Notes: a model not told the origin generated them from the letters alone. Positions 39,334 to 61,871 are shown, counted from the stretch's first letter. The stretch is DNA of 64,000 nucleotides from an uncultured Nitrospiraceae bacterium (GCA_963706325.1 CAVPLT010000005.1:290454-354453), one strand, 5' to 3'. Numbers and translations are program-made.

Positions 39334-39372
39334 GGGCCGGCTCGTGAAGTTTGATGTGGGCTACTCGATGCC
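39334..39372 (+). pseudogene. Excisionase (Xis) fragment
   Basis: Encodes GRLVKFDV; nucleotide match to the xis genes at 43265 and 56989. Confidence 0.7.
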
Positions 39373-39420
39373 GGACCATGCGATATCGCCACGCCGGTGG
39401 CATGAAAGCAATGGTGACCC

Positions 39421-39549
39421 TTACTGCAGGAGATAGATCGTGAGAAGGCTTACAGCCAGGACGAAACTGATTATGGCAAACAGACGGTATCGGCGGTCGA
39501 TAATGGCGCTCTGATTGAAGACATTGTCGTATAGCGGGCGTTCTTGCAT
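39421..39549 (-). CDS. 42-aa C-terminally anchored membrane micro-protein, copy 1
   Basis: MQERPLYDNVFNQSAIIDRRYRLFAIISFVLAVSLLTIYLLQ; AAAGGAGG RBS; homologous to 43390 and 57142. Confidence 0.85.
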   Translation of the reverse strand: MQERPLYDNVFNQSAIIDRRYRLFAIISFVLAVSLLTIYLLQ

Positions 39550-39571
39550 GAGCGTTGGGCCTCCTTTGACC

Positions 39572-39599
39572 ATTGTACGTGAGTGCCTTAAGGTTGCAA
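39572..39599 (-). promoter_or_regulatory. Sigma-70 promoter of micro-protein copy 1
   Basis: TTGCAA-16-TACAAT, 22 nt before ATG. Confidence 0.7.
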
Positions 39600-39817
39600 C
39601 GAGTAAGCGGTTTCTTCTCACAGCGGGTACGGGTGCCGGGATGCCACAGAGAAGAAGACGTTCAATAGAAGCTTGCCAAACGGAAGAGTCGTTACAGTTT
39701 TCGCATCGCTCAAACGCCCAGTTTCCGATGCAAGGACAGAGCAAAGGCATGAGTCTCTGGAGGCGATGTTATCCCGTCTTCAAACCTTGGCACTGAATTT
39801 CTTGTTACACTTCTTGA

Positions 39818-40447
39818 GTGAAGCAGGAAATTCTCAAAAAGTTTTGCACTTTAATGATGGCCTGGACATTGTGTGGGGCTTGCCTGACCGGCTGCATCAC
39901 CGATGCTCAAACGGTTCTTTCTCCTGAAGACGAGGGCCACAACGTTCTCCTTGTCGCACGGGTGGTGACTGTTATAACGGGTGAAAGGGCCCGGAGGTTC
40001 GAGCCGACCGTTCGAGAAGTGGAGCTTGCCGAACACGATGCAGGGACGCGATACCGTATCAGCGTTGGAGGCAACGATACGTTGGTTGCTGTATTTTTAC
40101 CTCCCGGTCGTTATGACATGACGCGGGTTGAAATTAATGAAGGGCCTTTTCTGTCGATCGCCCAACCGGCCATATCTCTTTCATTGGACGAAGGCCCAGT
40201 GATATTTGGCGGAACATGGCGCTTCGGAGTGGATTCGCCGCGCTACGGGCGGATGGTGTTGATGTCCATGCAGATGGACGAGGAGTCGCGGTCGCTCTTC
40301 GAGCGGAAAATTCGAGTGGATTACCCTACATTAACGTCCTCACCCATCACGCCCGTCCTGCCCCTTCCCACAGAATTCCAGACTCGGCTCTATGAGGTTG
40401 CGCCCTATCCACGTGTTTCACGATACTTCCGGCGCCATTACTGGTAG
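39818..40447 (+). CDS. Lipoprotein of unknown function
   Basis: LTGC lipobox; LPPGRY beta-rich motif. Confidence 0.75.
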   Translation: MKQEILKKFCTLMMAWTLCGACLTGCITDAQTVLSPEDEGHNVLLVARVVTVITGERARRFEPTVREVELAEHDAGTRYRISVGGNDTLVAVFLPPGRYDMTRVEINEGPFLSIAQPAISLSLDEGPVIFGGTWRFGVDSPRYGRMVLMSMQMDEESRSLFERKIRVDYPTLTSSPITPVLPLPTEFQTRLYEVAPYPRVSRYFRRHYW

Positions 40448-40951
40448 AGATCCAGCCATGCCACATGTTTCTTGGAGTAATTTGCGTTCGGGCTCCAACA
40501 AATGCTCTAGACATTGAGGTCTGCGCCAATGCTGTGAAACTTCCTTGCGAATACATGGATTGCGTGATTTCTCTAGGCGGGTCGATCGTAGTTCATGAGT
40601 ACTGGTCTTGCTGCATCATCGCCATGACCCCTAGCGTTCGTCGCGCCTTCTGGTATCGCTCTCGGAACATCAGCTGTGAAGCTCGCCAAGGGGCAACGCA
40701 TGATATGTTTCCTCTGCTGACTGGGAAATTTGCGGGTCAGACGGCGGCTATTGGATAATTGTGTGGAGAGTGATATTCCCAAGAGCGTCTCTGTCACCGC
40801 TGTACCGACGCGATGCCGTACACGGAGACAATCAGAGTGTGAAGTAGCTTAGTCGAGTGATGACATGAAGTCATAATCATTTCAAATCGACAGGGTTTTT
40901 CCAACGGTAGCTTAAAGCCGTCAGCTCTTTTGACAAGCCGCGGAGGTATCA

Positions 40952-41782
40952 GTGGACATTCGAGGGTTGAAGTTGAGAAGGCTGATCGCCATCATAGGTG
41001 GACTGGCGGTCATCGTCGGGATCTGGAAACCAGCGCAGGCTGAGACTCTGACAATTGGTGCGCCACCCAGCTTAAGACCAGCGTTGAGTGACATCTTGCC
41101 GATGTTTGAACGGGAATATGACGCGACGGTCAACGTCGTGTACACGCCATCGAAAACGCTTCTTCAGCAGATTGAAAAGGGAACCCCGATCGATGTGTTT
41201 CTGTCGGCGGGGGTTGAGGAAGTCGAGTATCTAGACAAGAAAGGACTGACTCTCAACGGACACCCTCGGATCTATGCTCAGACCTCTCTTGTCCTCGTGA
41301 TGTCGTCAATCTCCTCATCCCTTTCGGTTTCCTTTCAGGATGCGTTGTTGAACCGAGCCATACGCATCGCTCTCGGTGATCCCCAGACGTCCTCGTTGGG
41401 AGAAGTCACCGCCCGATCGCTGGCAAAGATCTATCCTGGCTACAAAAGCTCTTCCCATATTATCTACGCGCCACATAGTGAGGACATTATGGATCTGATA
41501 GTCAACGGCAAGGCCGATGTGGGTCTGATCTATCGCGTAGATTCGATCTCCAATGGCAAGGTACGCATCAGCGATGAAAACCCAATCGGGACGTATATAC
41601 CTATCCAGTTCGGACAAGCCGTGGTGTGGACCTGTCGAGAGGCCGTGCGTTCTGCCGCAGAACAATTTTCTGATTTCCTCATGACGCCTCGCATACAAAA
41701 ACTTTTGGCTAAATACGGATTTGACTCCATCCCATTGCCTATGGGTCTCATTCCGATTGAAAGGAAAGAGAGGGTATCATGA
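40952..41782 (+). CDS. modA: Molybdate ABC substrate-binding protein, ModA-like (divergent)
   Basis: SL..AL.DI, QIEKG.PIDVFLSA, IALGDP, GKADVGLIY..D and IQKLLAKYGF motifs. Confidence 0.8.
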   Translation: MDIRGLKLRRLIAIIGGLAVIVGIWKPAQAETLTIGAPPSLRPALSDILPMFEREYDATVNVVYTPSKTLLQQIEKGTPIDVFLSAGVEEVEYLDKKGLTLNGHPRIYAQTSLVLVMSSISSSLSVSFQDALLNRAIRIALGDPQTSSLGEVTARSLAKIYPGYKSSSHIIYAPHSEDIMDLIVNGKADVGLIYRVDSISNGKVRISDENPIGTYIPIQFGQAVVWTCREAVRSAAEQFSDFLMTPRIQKLLAKYGFDSIPLPMGLIPIERKERVS

Positions 41783-42372
41783 TCAGGAAATCCTTCATCT
41801 GGGTCGCCTTCCTCGTGACGATCGCGGCGCTGGGGGCCCCGAGCATTTTCGCCATCGACAAGAATCCCGGCACTCTGGAGGGTATTCCACCCAGAACCGT
41901 TGCCGATTATTTACGCGCAGTCATCATGGCCCACCGTCATTTTTATACCATCCAGATCGTAAACCGGCTCGGACAAGAGCGCATTGTCGATGCGTCGGAA
42001 AATTGGCAGGCCACGCATTCATTGCCCTTACCCGTGCAACTCCTGCAGGAAACAAGCGAGATTGCTGAATTGACCGGCCCAAATGTCCGCTTCCATCTGA
42101 TTAGTCAGTGGCCGATCAATAAGGCCAATGCGCCAGCTAATGAATTCGAACGGATGGCTCTTAAAAAAATTGAACAGCATCCAAATCGACCGTATTCCAG
42201 TACGATCGAGGGGGGCGGGCGACAGTTATTCGGAACCGTCTATGCTGACTTGGCGGTTACAACAGCATGCGTTCAATGCCACAATGCACATCCCAATAGC
42301 CCGAAATCGGATTTCAAACTCGGTGACGTCATGGGAGGACTAGTGATCAGTTTTCCATTGAGCCATCCGTGA
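41779..42372 (+). CDS. DUF3365/Tll0287-like exported c-type heme protein
   Basis: LISQWPINKANAP, ACVQCHN and DFKLGDVMGGLVISFP motifs. Confidence 0.85.
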   Translation: MIRKSFIWVAFLVTIAALGAPSIFAIDKNPGTLEGIPPRTVADYLRAVIMAHRHFYTIQIVNRLGQERIVDASENWQATHSLPLPVQLLQETSEIAELTGPNVRFHLISQWPINKANAPANEFERMALKKIEQHPNRPYSSTIEGGGRQLFGTVYADLAVTTACVQCHNAHPNSPKSDFKLGDVMGGLVISFPLSHP

Positions 42373-43144: not shown

Positions 43145-43393
43145 GTGTCGAAAGTGAGGCCTCACACCAGTGAGACGACTGGCCTCATGCGGCTCATCGA
43201 TTGCCTCTCAGCCCATACGATACACGCCATAGTGAGTCAGCGGCGGATTCCCCATGTGAAGGTCGGACGGCTCGTGAAGTTCGATGTGGCCCTGCTCGAT
43301 GCATGGATCAAGCAGAATACGGTGACGCCAATGGTGCAGCGACGGTCCTGTAGACTGGAGGGAAAGGCGGGTGCATCCAGGGCCGCGCCCTAG
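43145..43393 (+). pseudogene. Degenerate excisionase (HTH_17)
   Basis: LSAHTIHAIVSQRRIPHVKVGRLVKFDVALLDAWIKQNTV, close to 56866; N-terminal helix lost. Confidence 0.8.
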
Positions 43394-43518
43394 TGTAATT
43401 CATACATGAATACGACGCCCAGGGAGAAAATAAAGCATATCACCATGAGCAGTTGGTGCAACCGCTCATTTGTTTCAGATGCGTCGAACATATCAGAGAT
43501 TTGACTGCCTTCATTCAT
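43390..43518 (-). CDS. 42-aa membrane micro-protein, copy 2 (not in ORF track)
   Basis: MNEGSQISDMFDASETNERLHQLLMVICFIFSLGVVFMYELH; GAGGAGG RBS. Confidence 0.8.
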   Translation of the reverse strand: MNEGSQISDMFDASETNERLHQLLMVICFIFSLGVVFMYELH

Positions 43519-43539: not shown

Positions 43540-43567
43540 ATTGTATCGAACCATTTTCGCTTGGCAA
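43540..43567 (-). promoter_or_regulatory. Sigma-70 promoter of micro-protein copy 2
   Basis: TTGCCA-16-TACAAT, 21 nt before ATG. Confidence 0.7.
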
Positions 43568-43594
43568 GCAGGATCAATCTTTGGTGCGACCACT

Positions 43595-43665
43595 GCCGTG
43601 GGGAAGTGGAGGTGCGACTCTCGACGGTGCTCAAGCTGTGCAGGGTCCTAAATATTTCGCCATGG
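43595..43665 (+). pseudogene. XRE HTH C-terminal remnant
   Basis: GEVEVRLSTVLKLCRVLNIS vs GKLDPRLSTVLRLCRALGIT in 57379..57591. Confidence 0.65.
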
Positions 43666-43699
43666 CCGGCCATACCATAATGAAGGCCCCTTGCGGACC

Positions 43700-43900
43700 T
43701 CTCCGGCACTCGAGTATAGCCTTGGTGAAACGCCATGCGCATCTGAGCCCATCCCATCTGCACGCTGCAGTAGAAAGATAGCCTCCTTCGGCAGAAGTAT
43801 CGACGCAACGAGAAGCAGTCACCCCAGAGGAATAGGATCAGCCTCCTTTTCAAATGGAACCGTTTCAAATGGAACCGTGACAGAAACCGGAACGGTTGAA
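43700..43900 (+). pseudogene. Tyrosine integrase C-terminal remnant
   Basis: LRHSSIALVKRHAHLSPSHLHAAVE (decayed LGH...RYAH box), followed by AACCG direct repeats and the att site. Confidence 0.65.
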
Positions 43901-43941
43901 CAGCCTAAGGAGAGGAAAGTCATCGAAGCGACTGAAAGTAT

Positions 43942-43987
43942 TGGTGCCCCCCGGCCTGAATTGAACAGGCGACCTTCGGTTTAGGAA
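43942..43987 (-). repeat. att site: diverged 3' half of tRNA-Arg(CCT) including CCA
   Basis: Minus strand TTCCTAAACCGAAGGTCGCCTGTTCAATTCAGGCCGGGGGGCACCA vs tRNA TTCCTAAACCGCGGGTCGCACGTTCAATTCGTGTCGGGGGCACCA. Confidence 0.9.
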
Positions 43988-44117
43988 TCAGTGGAAAGGG
44001 GATGCTCAAGTCGTTGATGACTTGGGCATCTCCCGCCACTACAGCGGCTGGAGCGAGGTTGGCCTTCACTTCTAGTAGCAGCACTTCGTACCAATTCCAT
44101 TCGTTTTGTCTGTATTT

Positions 44118-44215
44118 CTAACACTAGGCTAACACCTGCCCCCCACCTGGCAGACCCCCCCGCCGTCATTGGGTATTGGTACCATCTGGGCAATGCGCGG
44201 TGAAAACAAAATGGG
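44118..44215. repeat. About 100-bp intergenic repeat, copy A (with TAACAC arm-like doublet)
   Basis: 22 bp identical to copy C; 17 bp identical to copy D. Confidence 0.85.
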
Positions 44216-44231
44216 CCGATGCGTCTCCATG

Positions 44232-44492
44232 CTAGGCTCGACGTTGTATGTCTTCGGAAATGCGGACATGCACATGACAGGTGATATCCATACCCGTGGC
44301 ATGTTGGCACCTGTTTTGGAGACAAGCCAAAACCATGCGCTTGACATGATTGACTGCCGCTGTTTGTGTGATGAACTTGCGTGTGTCAGGCACGGCGGTA
44401 ATCGGTGGAGTTCCGTCTGCAAAGGTCGCCTCGTAAACAAGAACATACCAGGCTTGGCACTTGCGTTGGAGTGTGATTGTAACTTCGACCAT
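44232..44492 (-). CDS. Small hypothetical protein
   Basis: 86-aa ORF ending just before repeat A. Confidence 0.5.
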   Translation of the reverse strand: MVEVTITLQRKCQAWYVLVYEATFADGTPPITAVPDTRKFITQTAAVNHVKRMVLACLQNRCQHATGMDITCHVHVRISEDIQRRA

Positions 44493-45205
44493 CGTACTGA
44501 AACGCTATTCAGGGTTGCGCGTAAAAACTGAGCCCCAAACTCTGAAGCGTGCGACCATATGATCGAGGCAGAGAAAAAGGTCAACGCAACGGCTTCATAT
44601 CTGGCTCGCGCTCAGGGTTCGTCACGACTTCCTGGCCGGGAGGTGTCAGGCCGAGTCGCCCCCGAGCCATGTTCCTTCAAAAATGAGACCAGGCCAAGCG
44701 TATCGAGCCGATGCTCGACCGTGTCACTCCTGTGTGCTGTAGCCACGCAGCATCGATCTTCAAGTAAAACTCACGAGTATCAGCCCTTCGTGTAAGCTGT
44801 ATATATTCCGAGTTGGCTGAAGGCTCTATCCGGAAACCACGTAAAAACAGATAGCATTCAACCAGATGTCGCTGAGTGAACATTCGTTGGTGGTTCAAGC
44901 ACACCCCTCAGACATCGAAAGGTCAATAGTCTTGAGAATGTCACTGTACCGGGTCAGGCAGGAATTACCACTAAGGATGTTCCTAGAGTCCAGTTGCATA
45001 GCCTCGGCACCTTTGTGCCATATCCTTGGGAGCACAATTTGGACTGCACTTTTGAAGCGTGGAGAGCGATGAGCCGTGGTATTCATAAGCCGTCGGTTTA
45101 TTCCCCGAACGACCTCGCCGAGCCCGTGAGGGGCCTCGAGAGCGAGAAGACGGCTAGGGGTTGCACTAGTTCTCGTCGGGCAATCCTGGATGTAATGGTT
45201 GTAAT

Positions 45206-45682
45206 ATGGCCTGCGAGCACGACTATCAACTGGAAACCGTCGGTGGCGTATACCTAACGGGGGCGTACGTCTGTCGGTTATGCAGCTACCGGATAGGAAT
45301 GTCCCACGAACAATTCCATCGACAAGCTATGTATCCAGGGCATTACCAAGCCGACGTGAGCGTCGCAGAAACCGTTGAACAGCGAGCACACCATGCGCGC
45401 GAACGGTATGTCCAACGGCTTAGGGACCAAATGAGGGAACTCTCCGGCGAGAATTTGCCATCTGTACTGAGCGAAGATGAGCGCCACGAAATTCTGACAG
45501 AAGTAATCCAGGAGGCCTTGTTGCAAGTCGTGAAGGACTGCCAGGAAGTAGCGAAGGGTTCTGGTCTGTCTGAAGCCAAGAAGGTTGCGGAGTTTATCGA
45601 GAGAAAACTTGGTGGCAGGACGAAAGATAATTCCTCGTCCCGTTACGCAATGCTGCCTAGCTGCCCTAGAAGGGATAGCTAG
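45206..45682 (+). CDS. Hypothetical protein
   Basis: CEH...CRLC N-terminus; helical C-terminus. Confidence 0.55.
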   Translation: MACEHDYQLETVGGVYLTGAYVCRLCSYRIGMSHEQFHRQAMYPGHYQADVSVAETVEQRAHHARERYVQRLRDQMRELSGENLPSVLSEDERHEILTEVIQEALLQVVKDCQEVAKGSGLSEAKKVAEFIERKLGGRTKDNSSSRYAMLPSCPRRDS

Positions 45683-45729
45683 GGGATAAGTGGCTCTCGC
45701 TAGTGGTCACCGGCGACCTTGCCGCTTGT

Positions 45730-46179
45730 ATGAACGCTAAGGCTTGGTTTCAGTTGCTTCTCGTTTCATTCTTGCCCCTCGTGTCCAGCTGCGCTGTTAC
45801 CGTCAAGGAGTTCCGCGAAAACCCCCTTATGGTCTTCAGTAAGGTCTCTGGCAGGCACGAGACTGTGGCGAATTGCATCATGCACCGCCTGGAGGAGACG
45901 GTGGACACCTGGCCGGACATGTTCAGGCTTACGACAGAAGGGGCCCGCACATCACTCCTAATCAGCCGGTTACAATTGGCCGGACCGTTTTTGTTCAAGC
46001 TTTCACCGCTTGCGGAGATGGTCTTTACAGAGACCAGGCCAAAAGATCTTCTTGTCGAGGCTAGATACCGAACATCTGTCGATGGCGAGTACTATCTGGA
46101 ACAGGCGAAACCATTAATTGCCAGTTGTGGCAAGCAGTCCCTGTCTAACAATACCTCAGCTTCCTTTCGCACTCATTGA
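45730..46179 (+). CDS. Lipoprotein
   Basis: Signal peptide ending VSSC; two further Cys. Confidence 0.7.
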   Translation: MNAKAWFQLLLVSFLPLVSSCAVTVKEFRENPLMVFSKVSGRHETVANCIMHRLEETVDTWPDMFRLTTEGARTSLLISRLQLAGPFLFKLSPLAEMVFTETRPKDLLVEARYRTSVDGEYYLEQAKPLIASCGKQSLSNNTSASFRTH

Positions 46180-46294
46180 CCACCGAGCCACCAGCGGGCC
46201 CGATTCACCCCCAACGACGACCGGCATGGGAACCATCACCCCTCAAGAACGTAGGTCAAAACAAAGGTACCCACCTGTCATTAGGTCCCAGATT

Positions 46295-46373
46295 CACCCC
46301 ACCGTCATCGGTTCACCGTGCCGCCCCTGATTGGGTCGGGTCCCATACCTGACATGTGCGCTTCAAACAAAAG
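46295..46373. repeat. Intergenic repeat, copy B
   Basis: cgtc.tcggttcacc.tgcc shared with C; ccatacc.gaca.g.gcg shared with D; ends aaacaaaag. Confidence 0.75.
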
Positions 46374-46853
46374 TGAGCATGGGTGATTTTGGCACGAAAA
46401 CGGCGTTGGCAGTTTGTGCATGACACTCCGAGAGGTCGCCTTGCATCGGACTGCCTAACTTATGGTGAGATCGGTGTGAATGACAGCCTTGGCATGGGCG
46501 TGTGCGCCTGTCTGAGGTTGGCTCAGACGCAGAAGATCTAGAACCACACCGTAAGCCTTGATACGTCCTTCTGATCGCTTCCTCTCGTTCACAGGTTTGT
46601 TCGGCCAACATACGCTGCCCGACCGTGTACGTCTGGCAGGTTGGCTCGGACGCATAAACCGGCCACTGACCGTGTCATACACTTGCCGAGAAAGAGTCTC
46701 AAGGGCCACCGTTCTCGGGTCTGGCTGAACTACACGAAGACGCTGCAAGATTCCAGACTAGGGACAAGAACGTCGACGAGACCACAGGGAGTTAGTCATG
46801 TGCGGCGTCAGAGGTAGTCGAACCGCGAAGGAAGGTCCTGAACGGCGTACAGG

Positions 46854-47258
46854 CTACAGACGGGCCCAAGGTCTCAACGTACCGATAGAATTGAGATGCA
46901 CCAAAATTCGACCGCTTCCTAGCAGGTAGTCAACGTGCGCGTGGAATTGGCCCTGCACCGAACAACTGGCGATGACGTCGGCCAATCCCGGCTGGGCCAC
47001 ATACCTGACACCCCCCAACTCCCGGCACCAATCCGCTTCGATATTGAGATGCTCCTCCAGCTCCCACACAGCAGACTCGCTCTCCGGCACGGAGATATGC
47101 AGATGAAGCATATTAAGTTCAATCGACGAATCGGGATACATGTTCATGAACGTGCCTGCGCTCACGTTCCCGTTCACGCGTACCATGTACCGTCTCCTGG
47201 AAGGATCACAAAAGTCCTCACACTCATCCAGTACTGGAGGGGTGACAACACACATCAC
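46854..47258 (-). CDS. Hypothetical protein
   Basis: 134-aa ORF with protein-like composition. Confidence 0.45.
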   Translation of the reverse strand: MMCVVTPPVLDECEDFCDPSRRRYMVRVNGNVSAGTFMNMYPDSSIELNMLHLHISVPESESAVWELEEHLNIEADWCRELGGVRYVAQPGLADVIASCSVQGQFHAHVDYLLGSGRILVHLNSIGTLRPWARL

Positions 47259-47279
47259 AGGCTGGTGGGATCAATGGAG

Positions 47280-48875: not shown

Positions 48876-48889
48876 TGCCGTTATCAATT

Positions 48890-51466: not shown

Positions 51467-51514
51467 GCAGGTTCCGGTATGCGGCAGGTCAGGAAATCGA
51501 AGGCGGATTATACG

Positions 51515-53091: not shown

Positions 53092-53207
53092 CGCCTGGAA
53101 CGCAGACCTGTACTCAAGTAAGTGCCCTCACACCAATCTTTCTTCTTCCCCTGCCCCCTGTAAGGCACAGCCAACCCCGCATATGGAACTCGCTGCGGCC
53201 TGAGGTC

Positions 53208-54032: not shown

Positions 54033-54228
54033 TGATAATGCAACGAGATTACAATGACTAGACGATAAGCTAACGGCCTAGGACAGTCTGCGTAGTAGGC
54101 TGGACTATATAGAGAGCGCCTTAAGTTGTACATAGTGCCATTAGGGCCGATAGATATCTTATTGTTGCCTTCTAGATAGCTGCCTATGGTGCCATTGAAC
54201 ATAGCCGCCAACTAACCCTTTATTGGTT

Positions 54229-54311
54229 CTAATAAGCGGCTTATGAAAGCTTATGAAGGCGTGAGTGGGGATGGGTTGTGGACCGCCAAGCTGAGTGCAA
54301 AAGAAGCGGTG
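54229..54311. repeat. Direct repeat, family 2, copy 2
   Basis: ctaataagcggcttatgaaagcttatgaaggcgtgagtggggatg...gaagcggtg. Confidence 0.8.
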
Positions 54312-54322
54312 ATTTGCACCGG

Positions 54323-54811
54323 TTATGAGTCACAAAGTTGTCGGTAGTGGCTATAAGCGTCCACGAGCGAAGACAGTCTGAGGAAGGGCTGAAACATCGA
54401 AGGTTTCCAACCAGTCGCCTCTTGGATAAAGCCGCCCTTTGTCATTCGGTCCCGACTCCATGCCTGATCTAGTACAGGCAACGTCAGCCAGTTTACGTGA
54501 TCGCCCGTCACTGCGTCCGTGGGCCATGTGAAATGATCCAGGAATGTTTTTTGTCCCTGTGTAAGCCCCTCATTGGCGAAAGGCATATAGCTGGGTAATC
54601 CACGCGGTCTCGGTTCCACATACCAGCGTATAGGGATAAGACCGTTTCTGTAGTCGCCAGTGCCAACCCGTGTAACCCACTCATCGAACAGTTCTAGCGC
54701 CGACGCATCGTCGATTGTGTAATCATCGGAAATCCAGCTCGCATCTATTTCGTAAATTGCCCACAGTTCCGTCTCAAATTTTCGCTCCCCCCGTTTTTTT
54801 GGTACCGCCAC
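54323..54811 (-). CDS. Trp-rich hypothetical protein
   Basis: 162 aa; FTWPTDAVTG..VNWLTLPV.D and GGFIQEATGWKPS. Confidence 0.7.
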   Translation of the reverse strand: MAVPKKRGERKFETELWAIYEIDASWISDDYTIDDASALELFDEWVTRVGTGDYRNGLIPIRWYVEPRPRGLPSYMPFANEGLTQGQKTFLDHFTWPTDAVTGDHVNWLTLPVLDQAWSRDRMTKGGFIQEATGWKPSMFQPFLRLSSLVDAYSHYRQLCDS

Positions 54812-54877
54812 AAGTTCACGTTAGGTACTCCCTTCTACAAGCGGTTTCTAAGCTGTTGGATCTAAATACAACTATTT

Positions 54878-54970
54878 AGTTGTCTATCGGCAGACAACTG
54901 AGCTTGACATACATAGGCATTCACTATATCTAGTGGGTATGTGATGTGATTACCACAATATGTTGTGGTT
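54878..54970 (+). promoter_or_regulatory. AT-rich divergent control region with TTGACA and palindromes
   Basis: agttgtct-N6-agacaact, TTGACA at 54904, cacta-tatc-tagtg, accacaa-tatg-ttgtggt. Confidence 0.55.
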
Positions 54971-55011
54971 ATTGGTGCCATTCATTCAGTTAGAAATACA
55001 AGGAGGATTCC

Positions 55012-56316
55012 ATGCATATGAGCGGCAATTCAGCTGTTGGCGAACGATCGAGAGCTTTGCTTAACAATTCATCATACCCGCAAATACAGCATGGTCAACC
55101 CCCAAGTTGCTGGCCCACACTGAAACCAGAGGCACTTGATGGCTTGGCCGGAGAGATCGTCCGGGAACTGGATCAGTACACCGAAGCGGACCCGGTGGCG
55201 GTCCTCGCTCACCTCTTGGCCCAGCTCTCCTGCTATATCGGTAAGTCTCCAGCGCCTGAAGTGTTGCTGGGAGGAGTGGGCAGTCCGCTTGCATTTTGGC
55301 CTGTCGTAATCGGCGATACGAGTAAGGCGCGTAAGGGTACTGCGGCTAAGGAAGCAGAGGGAGCCTTCGAGAGGTCATTTCCGGGATGGTCCAAAGACCA
55401 ATTGCGAGGCAATCTCTCCAGCGGTGAAGGCCTTGCCTATGCGGTGCGGGACGCTGGCTGCGAGCCAGGAGACGAAGGGATCCAGGACAAGCGGCTCTAC
55501 CTCGTGCAGCCCGAATTTGGCAGCATGCTCAAGCTGATGGGGCGTGAAGGCAATAGCTTATCAGGAATTATCCGTGACGCCTGGGACGGGGTAGATTTAG
55601 CTCCTCTTACGAAGAATTCACGAGTTCGAGCCACCAAGCCTCACATTGTCATCGTAGGTCACGTCACGAAAGAGGAATTACGCAAGGAGCTTAAAGCCGT
55701 TGAGCAATGCAACGGTTTTGGCAATCGTTTTGTCTGGCTGGCGGTTCATCGATCAAAGGTCCTAACTTTTCCTCCACCTCGGGATGAACGACGCCTCGAT
55801 GAGCTAGCTACCCGCCTCAAGGAGGTCGGCGGGTTTGCCCAAAACGTCAGGTCCGTCGGCTGGTCGTCGGATGGGAAAGACGCCTGGGCTAGCGTGTATC
55901 CGGTACTGTCGGAAGGAAAGCCTGGATATGTGGGAGCCCTTCTCGGAAGAGCGGAGGCGCACGTCGGGCGATTGGCTGCGCTGTATGCCTTGCTCGACCA
56001 AAAGTCTGAGATCGAAGCCTGTCACGTCCAATCTGCATTGGCGATATGGGAACACTCGGAAGTGTCCGCTGAGTGGATCTTTGGTCATGCAGATCAGATT
56101 GCAGAGCAAGAGAACAAGCTGCTCCGTGAGCTGGTGCGTTCTCGTCAGCTCACCGATTCAGATGTCAGCAAATTATTCGGGCACAACCTCGCGAGCGACA
56201 AGCTTGGACGGCTTAAAGATTCGTTGGTCAGCCAAGGTCTCGCGCACCACGAAACGGCGTCCACCGGAGGAAGGCCGATGCAGATCTGGAAGTCGGGGCC
56301 ACGCGTGACCGGGTAG
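55012..56316 (+). CDS. DUF3987/YfjI-family replication-associated P-loop protein
   Basis: GLAGEIV...TEADP, VIGDTSKARKGT, LSSGEGL, EFGSML, RDAWDG and NGFGNRF motifs; AGGAGG RBS. Confidence 0.85.
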   Translation: MHMSGNSAVGERSRALLNNSSYPQIQHGQPPSCWPTLKPEALDGLAGEIVRELDQYTEADPVAVLAHLLAQLSCYIGKSPAPEVLLGGVGSPLAFWPVVIGDTSKARKGTAAKEAEGAFERSFPGWSKDQLRGNLSSGEGLAYAVRDAGCEPGDEGIQDKRLYLVQPEFGSMLKLMGREGNSLSGIIRDAWDGVDLAPLTKNSRVRATKPHIVIVGHVTKEELRKELKAVEQCNGFGNRFVWLAVHRSKVLTFPPPRDERRLDELATRLKEVGGFAQNVRSVGWSSDGKDAWASVYPVLSEGKPGYVGALLGRAEAHVGRLAALYALLDQKSEIEACHVQSALAIWEHSEVSAEWIFGHADQIAEQENKLLRELVRSRQLTDSDVSKLFGHNLASDKLGRLKDSLVSQGLAHHETASTGGRPMQIWKSGPRVTG

Positions 56317-56336
56317 GCATCAGGGAGGGGATATTT

Positions 56337-56468
56337 CTTTTTTCGTAGACCTTAGGTGCAGAGTGCTGAGAGTTCACTACTCAATAGAAAAATCAGTAAG
56401 TAAGACAATGGCGAGACATATGAAGACTTGCGGATTCACACATACGGGCTACGAAAGAACGAAAAAAG
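56337..56468. repeat. Inverted iteron-like repeats (candidate origin)
   Basis: cttttttcgtag (56337-56348) faces ctacgaaagaacgaaaaaag (56449-56468) across an A-rich spacer. Confidence 0.55.
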
Positions 56469-56865
56469 TGTCTCAGGTCCTCGTCCCAGTGAAGCGCAAC
56501 GATGTGTAAGCCGAAGGGTGAGCCTGCTCCTCTTTCGCAGGCGAACCCTGAGGCCTCCTCTCTTCGTCGGCCAGGCCGACCATGAGGCAGCTAGGCACAT
56601 GTTTTAGCATAAAGACCCGCAATGGCTAGGTAGGCATGGGCCTGCGGGATTGATCAGAAAAACATTACGAAACGATAACAAAATCTGAAAGGAAGGGTAC
56701 CCACATGCAGCATCACTCTCGCAAAGATGGCAATACGCGCCAAGTGCCTAGATTGTTCCTGCGGACAGCCAAAGGAAGTGCGGCTCTGTCCCATGACCAC
56801 GTGCGCTCTGTGGCCTTACCGAATGGGTAAGCGCTCAAAAGAGATGAGCGGGAGCGAGGCTAGCC

Positions 56866-57075
56866 ATGAATGAGCAGGCTGCGTTGAAGAAGCTTATAGG
56901 CGTAGTGGAGGCCGCACAGTACACAGGCCTATCCGTGCATACCGTTTATGCGATGGTCAGCCAGCGGCGTATCCCGCATGTAAAAGTGGGCCGACTGGTC
57001 AAGTTCGATGTGGCCATGCTGGATGCGTGGATACGGAAGAACACCGTGATGCCTATGCCACCAAGACGCGCATAG
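56866..57075 (+). CDS. xis: Excisionase / HTH_17 DNA-binding protein
   Basis: LIGVVEAAQYTGLSVHTVYAMVSQRRIPHVKVGRLVKFD. Confidence 0.88.
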   Translation: MNEQAALKKLIGVVEAAQYTGLSVHTVYAMVSQRRIPHVKVGRLVKFDVAMLDAWIRKNTVMPMPPRRA

Positions 57076-57141
57076 ATCGCGAGATACGAGGCGGACGGGG
57101 TGCCAGTCGTGGCCCCGCCGCCGCCCAGCTTTGTTAGCGGG

Positions 57142-57270
57142 CTATTGCAGAAGATTAAGGGTCAATATACCCAAGGCGAGAACGAGACTCGCCACTGCGA
57201 GCCAGCGGTACCAGCGGTTATTGTAGTCGGTCTTGTCGAAGGTGTCCGTGTAGCGATTGCGTCCGTTCAT
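57142..57270 (-). CDS. 42-aa membrane micro-protein, copy 3 (not in ORF track)
   Basis: MNGRNRYTDTFDKTDYNNRWYRWLAVASLVLALGILTLNLLQ; AAGGGAG RBS; TAGAAT 21 nt upstream. Confidence 0.85.
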   Translation of the reverse strand: MNGRNRYTDTFDKTDYNNRWYRWLAVASLVLALGILTLNLLQ

Positions 57271-57343
57271 CTGATTACTCCCTTGAGAGCCATTCTACGG
57301 CACAGTGTGGCATGAAAAAAACCCCACGAAGGTCGGATTAAGA

Positions 57344-57378
57344 TTGACAGCGAGGTGTATCTTTATATACCATCCATT
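57344..57378 (+). promoter_or_regulatory. Promoter for the XRE-integrase unit, probably leaderless
   Basis: TTGACA-18-TACCAT, ATG 5 nt later, with gtgtat-cttt-atatac palindrome in the spacer. Confidence 0.6.
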
Positions 57379-57591
57379 ATGCTCACACAGTTGAAGAAAT
57401 GGCGAGAAAAGCGGGGGTTCTCCGTGCGCAAGCTTGGGGAATTAGCAGGTGTTACCCATGTGACTGTCGTGCGCATGGAATCAGGCAAGCTGGACCCGCG
57501 CCTCTCAACGGTCCTCAGACTGTGTAGGGCATTAGGCATTACGGTGGATCAACTGTTAGGCGTGGCCACTGAGCCACGGAAAGGTAGGTAG
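57379..57591 (+). CDS. XRE-family HTH regulator
   Basis: LKKWREKRGFSVRKLGELAGV...RMESGK.DPRLSTV..LC.ALG. Confidence 0.9.
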   Translation: MLTQLKKWREKRGFSVRKLGELAGVTHVTVVRMESGKLDPRLSTVLRLCRALGITVDQLLGVATEPRKGR

Positions 57592-57595
57592 TCCG

Positions 57596-58714
57596 ATGGG
57601 ACTGACTAGACGGAAGGACAGCTATTATGTCGAGTTTCGAGTGCTCGACGATGGCAAGGCGCTGAGGCTAGCCCATGAAGGTGCGGGGGGAAGGCTGAAG
57701 CGGTGGAAAGTTGGATCGCTCAATAAGACCCTGGCTAAACAACACGAGTCGATCATTAAGACGGACTTGATGAAAGGCAGCATTACAACTGACCAGGCCA
57801 AACTTGTTCGGTTTAAGGAATGGGGATTTCGCTACTTAGAGCTGGAAGAGGTTCGGCGCTTACGGTCTTTTCGAGACCGAGATAGGATTCTCAGGCACCA
57901 CCTAATACCCTATTTCGGCGCTTTGGCCTTGTCTGAGATCAAGCCAGACGACGTTGAGCAGTATCGAAGCCAGCGGCGTAAACAAAATGGTGACGCGCCT
58001 ACACTCCAGACCGTAAACAATGACCATATTATTCTGAAGCATTGCCTCAACGTAGCGATTCGACGCGGATTGCTCGTGAGTAATCCCGCTTCCAAAGTGC
58101 CCCTACCGGACCCTCATAATGAACGAGACCGTGTGTTAACAGAGGGTGAGTGGGAACGCTTGCACGAGGCAGCGGCTCCGCACCTCAAGCCCATGCTCCT
58201 GCTGGCCTACCATCTAGGGCAACGCTTTGGAGAGATTACTAATTTGACGTGGGACCGCGTGGACCTTCAGCGGGGGTTCATTACCCTGCGTTCCATTGAT
58301 ACTAAGACTAAAAAGGCGAGACAGGTTCCACTCACACCCGCCGTACGGTTAGCCTTGAGCGAGTTAGCCAAGGTGCGGCGTCTGAATACGAACCATGTCT
58401 TTGTGTATGATGGGCAACCCATTAAGAGCATTAAGACTAGATTCAGGAGAGCTAAACGGGTCTCGGGGGTCAATGGCTTCCGCTTCCATGACCTACGACA
58501 TTGTGCAGCAACGAACCTGAGAAGGGCTGGAGTTGATACAGCCACGGCGATGCGGATTGTGGGTCACAAGTCCGAGAAGATGTGGAAGCGGTATAACGCG
58601 ATCGACGAGAAGGACCTTACTAAGGCAGCCTCCAGGCTCAACACTTACCTTGAAGCTAACACGGTATTAACACCTGCCGATTCCGCCGCAGCTTCAGTCC
58701 CTGTAACTGCTTGA
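57596..58714 (+). CDS. int: Tyrosine recombinase / integrase (intact)
   Basis: LGQRFGEI (R), TKT (K), FHDLRH, VGHK and KRY catalytic set; ends 5 bp from the tRNA CCA. Confidence 0.95.
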   Translation: MGLTRRKDSYYVEFRVLDDGKALRLAHEGAGGRLKRWKVGSLNKTLAKQHESIIKTDLMKGSITTDQAKLVRFKEWGFRYLELEEVRRLRSFRDRDRILRHHLIPYFGALALSEIKPDDVEQYRSQRRKQNGDAPTLQTVNNDHIILKHCLNVAIRRGLLVSNPASKVPLPDPHNERDRVLTEGEWERLHEAAAPHLKPMLLLAYHLGQRFGEITNLTWDRVDLQRGFITLRSIDTKTKKARQVPLTPAVRLALSELAKVRRLNTNHVFVYDGQPIKSIKTRFRRAKRVSGVNGFRFHDLRHCAATNLRRAGVDTATAMRIVGHKSEKMWKRYNAIDEKDLTKAASRLNTYLEANTVLTPADSAAASVPVTA

Positions 58715-58719
58715 TAAAT

Positions 58720-58796
58720 TGGTGCCCCCGACACGAATTGAACGTGCGACCCGCGGTTTAGGAAACCGCTGCTCTATCCAACTGAGCTACGGGGGC
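58720..58796 (-). tRNA. tRNA-Arg(CCT)
   Basis: GCCCCCG...CGGGGGC-ACCA; anticodon arm GCGGT-TTCCTAA-ACCGC. Confidence 0.97.
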
Positions 58797-58822
58797 AAGG
58801 TTGATTTCAATGGTTTATATTC

Positions 58823-59931
58823 CTACTGCTCTGCTGCAGATTCGTCAAGTGTTTCCGGCGTGTTCTGCTTGGAGAGGTACATGTGCACCTTTGAGCGGCT
58901 TGCGTCAAGTCCCGTTCTTCGATGGCATTGTACCGCTTCCACATCTTCTCTGACTTATGGCCTACGATCTTCATTGCCGTCGCTGTGTCCACGCCTGCTC
59001 GGCGAGGTTGGTCGAGGCACAGTGCCGAAGATCGTGGAATCGAAAGTCTTGATCCTGCGTCCTTCAACGCCGTGCGGAATGAGCGACTAATGCGTTGAAG
59101 AGGTCGTCCCTTGTATAGTGAAGACGTGGCGTGTCGTCAAGACTTCGCACTTTAGCGAGCCGCTGCAACGTGGTTTTCACATCAGGGGTCATCGGCACTT
59201 GCCGAGCGCTTTTCGTCTTGGTGTCAGTCGCCCGCAGGATAATAAATCCTCGCTTGAGGTCTACTCGATCCCAGGTCAATTGACAATCTCACCGAACCGC
59301 TGCCCAAGTGGTACGCAGTCAACAACAGCGGTCTCAGATGCGGCTTCGCGCCTGATAGAGCTTCGCCCATTCTTCCTCAGTCAATATTCTCTCTCGCGCG
59401 TTCTGAGGGTCTGGCATGGCCACCCGTGCGGCAGGATTCTCTGAAGCAGTCCACGTCGGATTGCGACATTTAGGCAATGTTTTAATACAGTGTGATCGTT
59501 GTTTACGGTCTGTAGGCTAGCCGGCTTGCCATCACGTTTCTTCCGCTGTCCTCGGAAGTTTCAACGTCTGATGCTCTGATCTCCGGATAACTTTTCCCGA
59601 AGAAGGGGACCAACTGACGTTCGATGATTTCGACTCGATCGTGATAGCTTCGGAGCGCCTTTCGCTTCTCCAATTCTAGGTACGTCTTAGCCCACTCCTT
59701 GAACAAAAATCGGCTTGGCCGTCGCTTAGTGATCTTTGTCCAAGAAGGAGATGCGTGTCTTGATGGCCGCTTCCATGTCTCGGGCAGTGTCTTATTAAGA
59801 CTGCCCACCTTCCACCGTTTCTTCCTCGCTCCTGGTACTCCGCTCGCCAGGCGACAAGAGTCTTCCCGTCGTCGCGGTCGAGGACACGAAACTCGACGTA
59901 GTAGCTATCAGCTCGTTTCGTTAGATCCCAT
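58823..59931 (-). pseudogene. Second tyrosine integrase, homologous to 57596, many indels
   Basis: DSYYVEFRVLD, KVGSLNKT, FKEWAKTYLELE, LTWDRVDLKRGFI.LR..DTKTK and RRAGVDTATAMKIVGHKSEKMWKRYNAIEE in shifting frames. Confidence 0.9.
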
Positions 59932-59943
59932 ATATTCGTCCTC

Positions 59944-60200
59944 TCACTCCTCCGAAGCTGCTAGAGCATGCGTCCTTGTTATCCTGAGTCGCGCGACCTT
60001 CCAAGGAAGCTTCTGCGTCTCGACCCGTGCCTTAACAGTGTGTTGATCGATCCAATTGTCCAGGTCGTGCTGTTTGAATTTATGCAGGCGTCCTATCTTG
60101 ACGAAAGCCAAGCCTCCGCAGCCGAGACCCAACCGTAGAGGGTCAATTTTGATATGCCTAAATACTCCGATGCCTCAACCATTGTCAAAAGCCTGCTCAT
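59944..60200 (-). pseudogene. Excisionase, frameshifted near 60115
   Basis: MSRLLTMVEASEYLGISKLTLYGWVSA + FVKIGRLHKFKQHDLDNWIDQHTV. Confidence 0.8.
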
Positions 60201-60463
60201 GATCACTCCAGGAAAATTTTGTTGTCTGTATCCCGCCGAGATCTGTCCTATTCCCGCCTGACATCCATGCCGCCTACCAGACGGCCCGGGTTGAAGAGAA
60301 TTCCACAGCGGGTGCGATCCGTGGCCGGAGAGCAGGGGACAGGCCTTCCCGGTCTCCGGTTGTCCAGGCCTGCCCACTGCGAGAGCCCCGTGTCCGCCCT
60401 CTCTACGCCCCACCCTCTGTTGGTGAAGGGTGGGGCTACATAGTCTTGAAGAAGGAGGCGGAC

Positions 60464-60965
60464 ATGTCCGGTGATAGTTCTCTCGGTTCCTCGAACGGTG
60501 GACGGCCATTGAACCCGGTTCGGAAATACGGTGTACCTCGGTACCGCGTCACGCTCGTGCGGGAAGGCCGTGCCATTCCGGCGGCTGAATGGGTGCATAC
60601 ATCGGAGGGCGCGGCCGCGATCCTCCGCACCCTTGTTCGCTGGCTTGGATCGGGAGCAGTTCCTGATCTGTGGCCTGGATGCGAAACATGGGCTCATCGG
60701 CATCAATGTCGTGTCCACCTGGGTCGCTGACCTTGGCCATCGTCCATTCGCGTGAAGTGTTCAAGCCGCTGATCCTGATGAATGCCGGGGCCTGATCTGT
60801 GCCCACAATCACCCCTCCGGGGGATATCACGCCAAGCCCGGAAGATTGTGTCCTGACGAACGACTGCGCGAAGCTGCAGACCTGTTCGGCATTCCGCTCG
60901 ATCATCTCGTCTCGGCGGAAGAACGCTACTACAGCTTCGCCGACCAGGGTTGGCCGGGCGCTTAG
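60464..60965 (+). pseudogene. RadC/JAB-domain protein, frameshifted
   Basis: RYRVTLVREG, LDREQFLICGLDAKH.LIGINVVS, VHSREVFKP, AHNHPSGD..PS.ED, LDHL and YYSFAD; AGGAGG RBS. Confidence 0.85.
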
Positions 60966-61090
60966 CGCAGAAACCGTAACACCCAGGCGGCCCCGGCAGC
61001 CACTAACGCGAGTCCAATCGCGGCCGTCCCCCAAGCGACTAGGTCGGTCGCCAACGCATTGGCGATGGTGTGAATTTGTTGCGCCGTCAT
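60962..61090 (-). CDS. 42-aa coat-like protein without signal peptide (paralog of the pVIII-like gene)
   Basis: MTAQQIHTIANALATDLVAWGTAAIGLALVAAGAAWVLRFLR; AAGGAG RBS. Confidence 0.7.
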   Translation of the reverse strand: MTAQQIHTIANALATDLVAWGTAAIGLALVAAGAAWVLRFLR

Positions 61091-61143
61091 CCTTGATCTC
61101 CTTCGCCGTTGCCCTATTCATGCTGGCGAGTGATGCGAGAAAG

Positions 61144-61169
61144 GAGGCAGGCTGCTGCCAGCCTGCCTC
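61144..61169 (-). terminator. Hairpin after the major-coat-like gene
   Basis: gaggcaggctg-ctgc-cagcctgcctc followed by CTTT on the minus strand. Confidence 0.7.
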
Positions 61170-61177
61170 GATGGGCA

Positions 61178-61394
61178 TTACCCGCCCACAATCGCCTTTA
61201 CGCGCTTAAAGGCATAGATGGCCAACGCCACCCCAATCAGGGCCGCCGCCCACAAGAGCAGATCGGCCCGCACCGTGGCCACATCTGCGGAGACCGGAAA
61301 CAAACTGCGCGAACGACAACGCTGGTACGCCCAATGCGAAGACCAACGCCATCAGGAACCCGGTGACTCCCTTCACCCATCCCAAAGCCCTCAT
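61178..61394 (-). CDS. Inovirus major coat protein (pVIII-like), one-base frameshift near 61302
   Basis: Removing one T gives MRALGWVKGVTGFLMALVFALGVPALSFA|QLFPVSADVATVRADLLLWAAALIGVALAIYAFKRVKAIVGG; AAGGAGGT RBS. Confidence 0.7.
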
Positions 61395-61469
61395 AGAGCA
61401 CCTCCTTGTGCATCTGGTGGAGTCGTCCACCCGCGCCGCCGAAATCTCGCCGATTCGACCAGTTCGTGA

Positions 61470-61871
61470 GCATAAATCATCCAAACTCATTGCATTTAGT
61501 TTCTCGCGCAGCGCCAGATCAGACTCCGGCAGAGGCGCAAGTCCGTGGGTCAGCGCTTTGATATAAAGCCCGCTTCCACCCGCGACGATCGCGAGCTTGC
61601 AGCGCGAATTGATTTCGTCGATAGCACGTGAGGCGGCGCGCCGGTACTTTTCCGCATTCATCTCATCGCGGAGAGGTGTTGTGCCGATCATGTGATGCGG
61701 CGTCTTTGCCAGGGTCGAGCCGTCCGGGTTTGCCGTGAGTAGATCAAGACCCCGATAAATTTGAAATGCGTCCGCACTGACAATTTCCGCGCCGATTTCG
61801 TGCGACACGTCCGCTGCCAACTCAGACTTCCCGGTTGCAGTCGGGCCGACGATAAAGAAAGCGTGTTTCAT
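61470..61871 (-). pseudogene. miaA: tRNA dimethylallyltransferase, N-terminal ~130 aa only
   Basis: IVGPTATGKS, SADAFQIYRGLD, PHHMIG and GGSGLYIKAL motifs; homology stops abruptly. Confidence 0.88.

Follow-up and report, generated by a model that had tools for sequence, protein, structure and literature searches.

One tRNA-Arg(CCT) gene of an uncultured Nitrospiraceae bacterium is flanked on opposite sides by a filamentous prophage and a probably independent DUF3987 island

The window, the whole 64,000-nucleotide stretch analysed here, carries a tRNA-Arg(CCT) gene with a 14.8-kb island on its 3′ side and a filamentous prophage on its 5′ side (Table 1). Host backbone synteny, as judged by alignment with relatives, ends at about 35.6 kb, and the core TTAGGAA at 43981 and 58758 delimits an island of 14,777 bp with intact ORFs for int, xis, XRE and DUF3987; no virion, structural or conjugation genes were detected in it. 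The DUF3987 protein showed neither a fused primase domain nor a primase partner, and an IMG/VR search for close relatives of it returned none; helicase activity has been demonstrated for another member of the family (PMC11724360), and the phage collection has relatives of it in Thermobifida and Streptomyces phages of 48–57 kb. Among the cargo genes, the GT2/Wzy-like pair has a paralogous pair at C1:1212964–1215295 (51–55% identical), 'Wzy-like' being a label based on hydrophobicity and position with no family match. Older, coreless copies of the island-end sequence lie at 46298–46373, 48888–48986 and 49944–50033, with five more elsewhere in the genome.

Table 1 Features of the tRNA-Arg(CCT) locus (window coordinates unless contig C4 is given).
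Feature	Position	Strand	Remarks
Variable (accreted) region, tRNA 3′ side	35600–58719		Relatives align to ~35.6 kb, then scattered matches until 57 kb
Remnant module C	39335–39549		xis fragment (+); 42-aa membrane micro-ORF 39421–39549 (−); no integrase, no DUF3987
Remnant module B	43203–43518		xis pseudogene (+); 42-aa micro-ORF 43390–43518 (−); no integrase, no DUF3987
Displaced variant 3′ half of tRNA-Arg(CCT)	43940–43987	−	Distal att of 14.8-kb island; 7-bp anticodon-loop core 43981–43987
Distal arm-type motif and conserved island-end sequence	44118–44224	+
LuxR-type regulator (cargo)	47854–48837	+
GT2 glycosyltransferase and polytopic Wzy-like protein (cargo)	50063–52609	−
PDZ-domain lipoprotein-like ORF (cargo)	53208–54032	−
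DUF3987-family protein, predicted helicase	55012–56316	+	Pfam E 2.9e-8, partial match, residues 158–357
Island xis (HTH_17)	56866–57075	+
42-aa membrane micro-ORF	57142–57270	−	C-terminal TM segment, unnamed family
XRE/HTH_3 regulator	57355–57591	+
int1, intact tyrosine integrase	57596–58714	+	3′-polarity subclade; arm motif 58656–58678 inside 3′ end
tRNA-Arg(CCT)	58720–58796	−	3′ half from island, 5′ half from prophage; core 58758–58764
int2 (prophage)	58820–59931	−	Frameshifted in window; intact allele C4:1807–2934; 5′-polarity clade
Prophage xis	59990–60200	−
Hairpin conserved in Nitrospira inoviruses	60407–60436		10-bp stem; candidate packaging signal or lagging-strand origin
radC-like JAB gene of prophage	60464–60965	+	Indels in window
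42-aa hydrophobic coat-like ORF	60962–61090	−
Predicted major coat gene	61178–61394	−	Signal peptide, TM segment, basic tail; frameshifted; intact 71-aa ORF C4:4178–4393
Probably foreign DNA joined by misassembly	61454–64000		Truncated miaA, ECF sigma factor, Ser/Thr kinase
Rest of prophage	C4		zot 4861–5634; pVI, pIII-like, ssb-like; Rep_trans 7709–8554

Three homologous 42-aa single-TM micro-ORFs stand one behind each xis copy (island, modules B and C), and with the GT2/Wzy-like pair they confirm the presence of the membrane micro-proteins and surface-glycan cargo described in an earlier, sequence-only reading, which proposed a filamentous phage with a satellite array. That reading had also counted several DUF3987 satellites; we rejected this because the window has a single DUF3987 gene, and what lies at 39.3 kb and at 43.2 kb is remnant. 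The micro-proteins gave no significant Pfam match, their 11 homologues are all unnamed, and their ORFs are confined to the xis-XRE-int1 module, occurring in none of the inovirus loci. A role as satellite coat was likewise rejected, on this distribution and because basic residues precede the C-terminal TM segment and there is no basic tail, the reverse of a coat protein.

The coat-encoding element at tRNA-Arg(CCT) is an inovirus prophage that encodes its own integrase and spans 58.8–61.4 kb of the window and C4:4455–9150 in the same assembly. On C4, pI/Zot (PF05707, E 4.8e-30) is encoded by an ORF of 257 aa, shorter than the ~345 aa of relatives, and the rolling-circle initiator matches Rep_trans (E 7.2e-37); matches to DUF2523 and to pVI-like PHROG 306/974 were found, the pVI-like PHROGs in a close relative. 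The small TM ORFs measure 71 aa (signal, TM and basic tail), 42 aa and 35 aa. The predicted major coat has no Pfam, PHROG, NCBIfam or PDB match and is therefore named from its anatomy and its place among the genes. The radC-region hairpin gave folding z-scores of −3.6 and −4.8. IMG/VR holds 13 contigs with pI 90–93% identical, and none of these 13 has terminal repeats. The Nitrospira inovirus exchanges integrases among at least five lineages: 22 loci with ~90% identical backbones occupy 8 different tRNAs and carry at least five integrase lineages. pI was found in 59 of 300 family genomes and in 20 of 38 in this genus.

Near the far end of the window, a public contig that covers 60225–61441 shows 13 gaps relative to the window, and the radC-region frameshifts are therefore likely sequence errors. 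Beyond ~61454 lies a second, truncated miaA (the native miaA, on C7, is 38% identical), and behind it comes an ECF sigma factor for which most of the nearest Atlas clusters belong to Verrucomicrobiota; this DNA was found in none of 38 congeners, and public contigs depart from the window into other sequence at 61474. The join at ~61,454 is probably chimeric, and the true continuation of the prophage is C4:4455 onward, with just its first 2.7 kb, including indel errors, in the window. We considered miaA as a second integration site and rejected it in favour of chimerism on the strength of the C4 overlap, the public contigs, the native miaA and the congeners.

Several alleles of the site were recovered. 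The displaced 5′ half of tRNA-Arg(CCT) lies upstream on C4 (27884–27927, 26,147 bp away) in the same orientation, with the integrase inside, an arrangement repeated in three other genomes (G168, G120 and G085). Window positions 57018–61453 overlap C4:1–4454, identical to ~58250, divergent over int2 and ~95% identical after 60000. A public contig equals the window over 43541–43987 and then passes directly into the tRNA 5′ half, an empty-site allele seen over 12 bases past the core, fewer than the 31-base bridging standard. Filled, empty and C4-type alleles occur together in the sampled population, and since window and C4 differ in junction allele, the exact pairing of island and phage may be a strain mix. 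No attP circles were seen in the public-run contigs (depth 3–7, one study, which may be the source sample), and joints from 43892 to 58716 were rejected as attP evidence because a 31-bp repeat produces them.

The integrases of the two elements are related, as the earlier reading held in giving both elements one integrase family, xis and arm motifs at this tRNA; the 7-bp core is common to both as well. int1 and the intact C4 copy of int2 are 62.7% identical; in each element a tandem RACAC-N6-RACAC arm-like motif occurs twice, once at the 3′ end of int and once ~140 bp inward of the distal end, with the int-proximal arms of both elements flanking the tRNA core, and their HTH_17 xis proteins are 47% identical over 55 aa. 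In quick trees int1 and int2 fall in one clade but in separate subclades, between which the bases flanking the arm repeats differ; 25 of 77 loci, which were partial or broken or had no tRNA call, were excluded from the second tree. The nearest relatives of int1 sit at tRNA-Thr in phage-free contexts. Across the 77 loci of the clade, 30 of them too short to type, zot lies upstream in 9 and DUF3987 is present in none, and others carry TrwC with T4CP, a T7-like RNA polymerase, D5 or DUF3854 genes. The polarity of islands with a displaced 5′ fragment, rare in the Islander figures (159 of 3919 islands; PMC4383910), is the rule here, at 55 of the clade's 62 tRNA-adjacent loci.

We consider it probable that tRNA-Arg(CCT) is a hotspot entered from opposite sides by two mobile elements that do not depend on each other. 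The inovirus replaces, and thereby restores, the 5′ half of the tRNA, like the 5′-fragment islands of Islander, and the int-xis-DUF3987 island replaces the 3′ half; both integrases presumably cross over in the anticodon loop, as in those islands. The 7-bp overlap appears to be inverted relative to int between the two attP sites, and because of this inversion either insertion would keep the core usable by the other element, allowing coexistence without dependence. The phage would replicate by its Rep_trans rolling-circle initiator and be extruded via pI, the island would replicate as dsDNA, using its DUF3987 protein as helicase, and would most likely travel in tailed-phage particles in the manner of PICI/PICMI elements, and the related integrases would stem from a pool of interchangeable int-xis-att modules shared throughout Nitrospira. 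In co-locating an integrase, AlpA/HTH_17 and DUF3987 with no capsid genes, the island resembles the PICMI core as given in that group's model definition (PMC10803314), but it differs from the PICMIs described there in Vibrionaceae, which average 6.7 kb, lie next to fis and have virulent tailed helpers, in its 14.8-kb length, its att at tRNA-Arg(CCT) and its additional XRE gene. No tailed helper phage for the island was identified.

The prophage has a close counterpart in the Pf prophages of Pseudomonas aeruginosa, which, according to PMC7549136, encode a tyrosine integrase and an HTH_17 excisionase of their own and sit at tRNA-Gly/Met/Sec or tmRNA, with an integrase type that tracks the site and is swapped independently of the morphogenesis genes; a tRNA-targeted, self-integrating inovirus, which the sequence-only reading had found unfamiliar, thus has precedent. 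The Nitrospira phage differs from Pf as described there in its Nitrospirota host, its Rep_trans initiator and the presence of radC/JAB in all copies examined, and it takes the tRNA 5′ side at Arg-CCT, Arg-TCT and Gly-CCC, whereas the Pf attP fragments quoted in that paper are 3′ ends. Our literature search naming Nitrospira found no description of a filamentous prophage family, although the supplements of Roux et al. may list such sequences; the site documents one that is common in nitrifying Nitrospira, and a tRNA that sister integrases can load from both sides, by a polarity uncommon elsewhere and normal in this clade.

An alternative interpretation is that the island is a decaying cargo island, still excisable but with replication and transfer lost. 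The coreless end remnants nested inside it, the partial DUF3987 match without a primase partner and the fact that other members of the family in this genome are broken are consistent with decay, but we consider it unlikely because the four ORFs (int, xis, XRE and DUF3987) are intact and filled, empty and C4-type alleles coexist. We also doubt, more strongly, that the elements are coupled by recombination without packaging, such that integrases and excisionases cross-act at the common core and phage induction also excises the island. Membership of one clade with a common arm motif makes cross-talk possible, and the same core, the equivalent positions of the arm repeats, the related xis proteins and the int-proximal arms on either side of the tRNA core fit such coupling; against it stand the differing arm-repeat flanks, the separate subclades and intact int1-type elements in two genomes without a Zot match (G176 and G009).

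The sequence-only reading had the island as a satellite of its neighbour, packaged as ssDNA by the inovirus and sharing its integration machinery. Its inovirus with its own integrase and its related integrases hold up, and its proposed co-occurrence analysis was run: Zot was present in 8 of 34 DUF3987-positive genomes, leaving 26 without a match, and in 51 of 266 others (6 of 20, Fisher p = 0.25, with a single-protein DUF3987 query), counts in which kin are not independent and MAGs are incomplete but which give no enrichment of DUF3987 islands with inoviruses. The first part of that reading's own refuting condition, that satellites occur independently of inoviruses, is thus borne out. Among the 20 DUF3987 loci retrieved, none has an adjacent zot, and the one with an int1-clade integrase is in a genome without a Zot match. 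The island has no rolling-circle Rep match and no copy of the radC hairpin; against the rep-upstream hairpin it mismatches at 9 of 26 positions at best, no better than shuffles (6–10), and comparison with 15 phages outside int gave no recurrent DNA match, one 21-bp match being at shuffle level. The two relatives with an inovirus at tRNA-Arg(CCT) (G168 and G094) have a Rep_trans element on the 3′ side, not DUF3987. Adjacency, the similar integrases with the same arm motif and core, and the want of structural or conjugation genes would suit a satellite, but set against these results, and against a DUF3987 helicase family with relatives in Thermobifida and Streptomyces phages, packaging by the inovirus is very improbable. 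A helper–satellite link between prophage and DUF3987 island is not supported; we caution that known satellites are also found without helpers, and that the co-occurrence counts are compatible with occasional packaging.

Opposite polarity on opposite sides means that this is no tandem array of the CTX/RS1 type. TLC is among the capsid-less neighbours of CTXphi in its arrays, and RS1 has the phage's rolling-circle module in common with CTXphi; the DUF3987 island has no part of that module. Like those arrays, the locus joins a filamentous phage and a capsid-less neighbour at one chromosomal site, but IMEXs (CTXphi, RS1 arrays) are described as using host XerCD at dif (PMC12715192, PMC11389934), whereas both elements here encode integrases and target a tRNA. 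The island also differs from pDolos, a rolling-circle plasmid satellite for which, in the account available as a preprint, a rolling-circle replicon plus packaging signal suffice to hijack an inovirus (bioRxiv 10.1101/2023.11.28.569023), in having no such replicon.

A closer RS1 analogue is found in relatives, where the 3′ position holds a 4–5 kb int-xis-Rep_trans element in 12 of 15 tRNA-Arg(CCT) loci, which is not a frequency estimate because the loci were picked favouring displaced halves. These elements are likelier satellite candidates than the DUF3987 island: their Rep is 50–52% identical (~51%) to that of the phage, and a rep-upstream hairpin, with a folding z-score that is not significant, is found in both. 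Relative to pDolos they have the rolling-circle replicon but are integrated, and no packaging signal common to phage and element was found; the radC hairpin is absent from them, and an IMG/VR search with their proteins gave no match. They share the int-xis-Rep_trans anatomy of IMEs with Rep_trans/MOBT relaxases, described as Firmicutes elements mobilised by ICEs (PMC7563843, PMC5704250), but unlike in those IMEs the close relative of Rep here is an inovirus Rep; they may be packaged or may instead move by conjugation. Rep_trans-int elements occur in 30 of 39 genomes of the genus, including this one at tRNA-Val, with Zot in 17 of 30 carriers and 4 of 9 non-carriers (p = 0.71). It is conceivable, though we hold it only tentatively, that they are tRNA-integrating, self-excising inovirus satellites whose ssDNA circles are extruded by phage pI and coat, which would make them the equivalent of an RS1 equipped with an integrase. 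They offer a concrete satellite candidate in culturable nitrite oxidisers, and packaging by inoviruses would open a non-lytic gene-transfer route in nitrifiers to study; opposite-polarity integration would then let helper and satellite use one tRNA uncontested, as in G168 and G094.

The most likely reading, in which we place fairly good confidence, is that the 14.8-kb island (an int-xis-DUF3987 element replacing the 3' half of tRNA-Arg(CCT); integrase, int1) and the inovirus prophage (replacing the 5' half; integrase, int2) are independent co-tenants of a two-sided tRNA hotspot. The sequence-only reading had instead made DUF3987 elements satellites of a coat-encoding filamentous phage that share its integrase family and tRNA site; overall, its observation is partly confirmed and its interpretation partly supported.

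The window is the final 64 kb of contig C5 in a genome of eight contigs, and the prophage continues on another, C4. Host synteny with relatives ends ~35.6 kb into the window and picks up again at C4:~31.2 kb, which leaves variable DNA of ~23 kb on the 3' side of the tRNA and ~29 kb on the 5' side. Contig comparison gave C4:1-4454 as the counterpart of window 57018-61453, identical up to ~58250, ~20% different over int2 and ~5% different past 60000, with numerous indels. Because a public contig covering 60225-61441 aligns to the window with 13 gaps, the frameshifts in that interval are likely sequence errors. From ~61454 the window carries a truncated second miaA (38% identical to the native copy on contig C7), then an ECF sigma factor, with Atlas clusters mainly from Verrucomicrobiota, and a kinase. 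None of the 38 congeners searched had this stretch, which we read as a probable chimeric join, with the true continuation given by C4. The window's exact tRNA occurs in 25 congeners and a 91%-identical variant in several, and two alternative 3' halves with compensatory T-arm changes are in circulation.

That the coat-encoding element is a filamentous phage was borne out on C4, where it encodes an integrase, xis, RadC/JAB, two coat-like ORFs, the morphogenesis ATPase Zot/pI (E 4.8e-30), a DUF2523/pVI-like protein, a frameshifted pIII-like region, an ssb-like ORF (so labelled from position and size), Rep_trans (E 7.2e-37) and an HTH_17 protein. This gene order is matched in an intact relative in genome G168, including PHROG minor-coat matches, and the displaced tRNA 5' half lies 26,147 bp away. 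The cargo accreted in the prophage-led island presumably includes, from sequence, a PAS histidine kinase, methyltransferases, a NuoB-like ORF and a ferredoxin-like ORF. pI was found in 59 of 300 family genomes (the same count by protein and Pfam query) and in 20 of 38 within the genus. The backbone is ~90% identical across 22 loci, which occupy eight tRNAs (Arg-CCT, Arg-TCT, Gly-CCC, Phe, Lys-TTT, Ser-TGA, Ala-CGC and Glu-TTC) and use at least five integrase lineages. The Nitrospira inovirus has a radC-like JAB gene as a constant component, which runs antisense to the phage genes, occurs in all inovirus loci L052-L071 bar L058 and is split by insertion in L062 and L063; the perfect 10-bp-stem hairpin upstream of it, present in ~50 inovirus-type loci, is a candidate packaging signal or lagging-strand origin. 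The sequence-only reading did not recognise a tRNA-targeted, self-integrating version, but such inoviruses are already known; Roux et al. tallied 582 prophages with att in a tRNA or adjoining an integrase (PMC6813254). For Nitrospira inoviruses, DUF3987 satellites at tRNAs and inovirus satellites, no published description of the system was found in a search with most subscription journals and the supplements of Roux et al. outside its scope.

The island measures 14,777 bp core to core and carries DUF3987, xis, a 42-aa micro-ORF, XRE and, at its tRNA end, an intact integrase; its cargo includes LuxR, a PDZ protein and a GT2 with a Wzy-like partner, this pair having paralogues on contig C1 (51-55%). 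An empty-site allele is seen in a public contig identical over 43541-43987 and then extending 12 bases into the tRNA 5' half, and a C4-type int end in another public run, both from one study and possibly from the source sample. The claimed satellite array is accretion at the hotspot: the window holds a single DUF3987 gene (two more in the genome lie at tRNA-Ser and tRNA-Pro, by distant integrases), only remnants consisting of xis and a micro-ORF stand at 39.3 and 43.2 kb, and the element encloses three coreless island ends. The micro-protein, a tail-anchored membrane protein of an unnamed family, stands convergent behind xis in the window modules and is often what survives intact in decayed copies.

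Hijacking an inovirus requires ssDNA and a packaging signal, according to the accessible part of bioRxiv 10.1101/2023.11.28.569023. Rep is lacking from the island, whose closest match to the hairpin preceding each phage rep has 9 mismatches in 26 (shuffles, 6-10); the second phage-conserved hairpin (radC), a candidate packaging signal, is absent from it, and zot was adjacent at 0 of 20 DUF3987 loci examined. These results argue against an inovirus satellite. No recurrent DNA outside int is common to the island and 15 phages. Nor did DUF3987 elements co-occur preferentially with inoviruses: the window's DUF3987 protein matched in 20 of 300 genomes, of which 6 have Zot (P = 0.25), PF13148 matched 20 of 300, 3 with Zot, and Zot was present in 8 of 34 genomes of the union versus 51 of 266 others, counts that show no enrichment rather than independence since kin are non-independent and MAGs incomplete. 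Three DUF3987 loci at tRNA-Arg(CCT) (genomes G152, G084 and G024) carry unrelated integrases. Helicase activity has been demonstrated for a DUF3987 protein, as excerpted from PMC11724360, and the island's int, HTH_17 and DUF3987 fit the PICMI gene model, for which the text available of PMC10803314 gives tailed phages as helpers.

The shared integrase family and motif stood as observations but not as evidence for packaging. int1 and int2 are 62.7% identical with catalytic motifs intact and fall in a single clade (99 SH-aLRT, quick tree), and each element has a tandem RACAC-N6-RACAC motif twice, once in the 3' end of int and again ~140 bp inward of the distal att. Read along int, the tRNA 3' half faced by int1 is in reverse and the 5' half faced by int2 is forward, which inverts the 7-bp loop of one relative to the other; we infer that they would use the same crossover site with opposite polarity. 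A second quick tree places int1 among 3'-side integrases of tRNA-Thr sites and separates it from a 5'-side clade of 40 members. Among 77 loci of the int1/int2 clade, 62 have an adjacent tRNA and 55 of these are 5'-side, compared with 159 of 3919 islands in Islander (PMC4383910). zot lies upstream in 9 of the 77 and a DUF3987 match in none (30 could not be typed, being too short); further loci have TrwC and a coupling protein, a T7-like RNA polymerase, D5/DUF5906, DUF3854 genes or cargo alone, and this mixture makes a common integrase family uninformative about packaging.

Features at and around the tRNA-Arg(CCT) site and in related loci (positions without a prefix, window; C, contigs of the same assembly; L, loci from compared genomes)
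Feature	Location	Strand	Remark
tRNA-Arg(CCT)	58720-58796	-	
Alternative tRNA 3' halves	43940-43987 vs 58720-58764; C4:1703-1779; L049		
Possible degenerate tRNA-Arg(CCT) 3' half	2700-2757		core intact, 56 kb from tRNA
Prophage genes	C4:1807-9150		
Displaced tRNA 5' half	C4:27884-27927		
Accreted prophage-island cargo	C4:9200-27880		
radC-like JAB gene	60464-60965		
radC-upstream hairpin	60407-60436		
RHS/FG-GAP protein	L034:12446-19897		2483 aa, SpvB and TcdB_midN domains, in G168 inovirus-led island
42-aa micro-protein copies	57142-57270; 43390-43518; 39421-39549; C4:~694.5 kb, ~1010.5-1010.7 kb; L079; L167; L169; L196		
Cassettes	47264-47713; 45201-45350		3-4 copies elsewhere in genome, 71-82% identical; first codes for 29-aa TM peptide and 59-aa ORF
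Accreted region	37643-38541; 38689-39144; 40952-42372		frameshifted ORF (70% paralogue at C4:588-589 kb), Hsp20, solute-binding protein, Tll0287-like heme protein
Host-backbone ORF	30933-32588		551 aa, low-complexity Pro/Ser/Thr middle, C-terminal REase_DpnII-MboI domain
T7-like single-subunit RNA polymerase gene	L175:4079-6148		upstream of xis and int1/int2-clade integrase, Nitrospira chromosome
TrwC relaxase, type IV coupling protein	L107:3063-7709		5'-side element at tRNA-Arg(TCT)
5'-side element without phage genes	L033:3663-10774		7.1 kb; serine resolvase, unannotated ORF, xis, int2-clade integrase
int-xis-Rep_trans examples	L033:10856-15699; L036:7967-12383; L042; L043; L044; C1:678761-681300		

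Judged on sequence, small int-xis-Rep_trans elements appear to be better satellite candidates than the DUF3987 island. They occupy the 3' side of tRNA-Arg(CCT) in 12 of 15 selected relatives, both relatives with a 5'-side inovirus among them, and span 4.4-5.4 kb where both ends are seen (rep is broken in three). Their Rep is 50-52% identical to the phage Rep, and the rep-upstream hairpin is common to the two, often with a second upstream repeat; this Rep is carried by 30 of 39 genomes, and Zot is missing from 13 of the 30 (17 of 30 carriers versus 4 of 9 non-carriers have Zot, P = 0.71). Counting against a satellite role, the radC hairpin was not found in these elements, one copy has a NikA-like gene, their relatives in databases are distant ones among gut ssDNA viruses and Firmicute plasmids, and Rep_trans doubles as the relaxase of IMEs in the parts available of PMC7563843 and PMC5704250. 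We consider their packaging by the inovirus unlikely, if well short of far-fetched. They are often several per genome, with cargo including PIN toxin-antitoxin pairs and lipoproteins.
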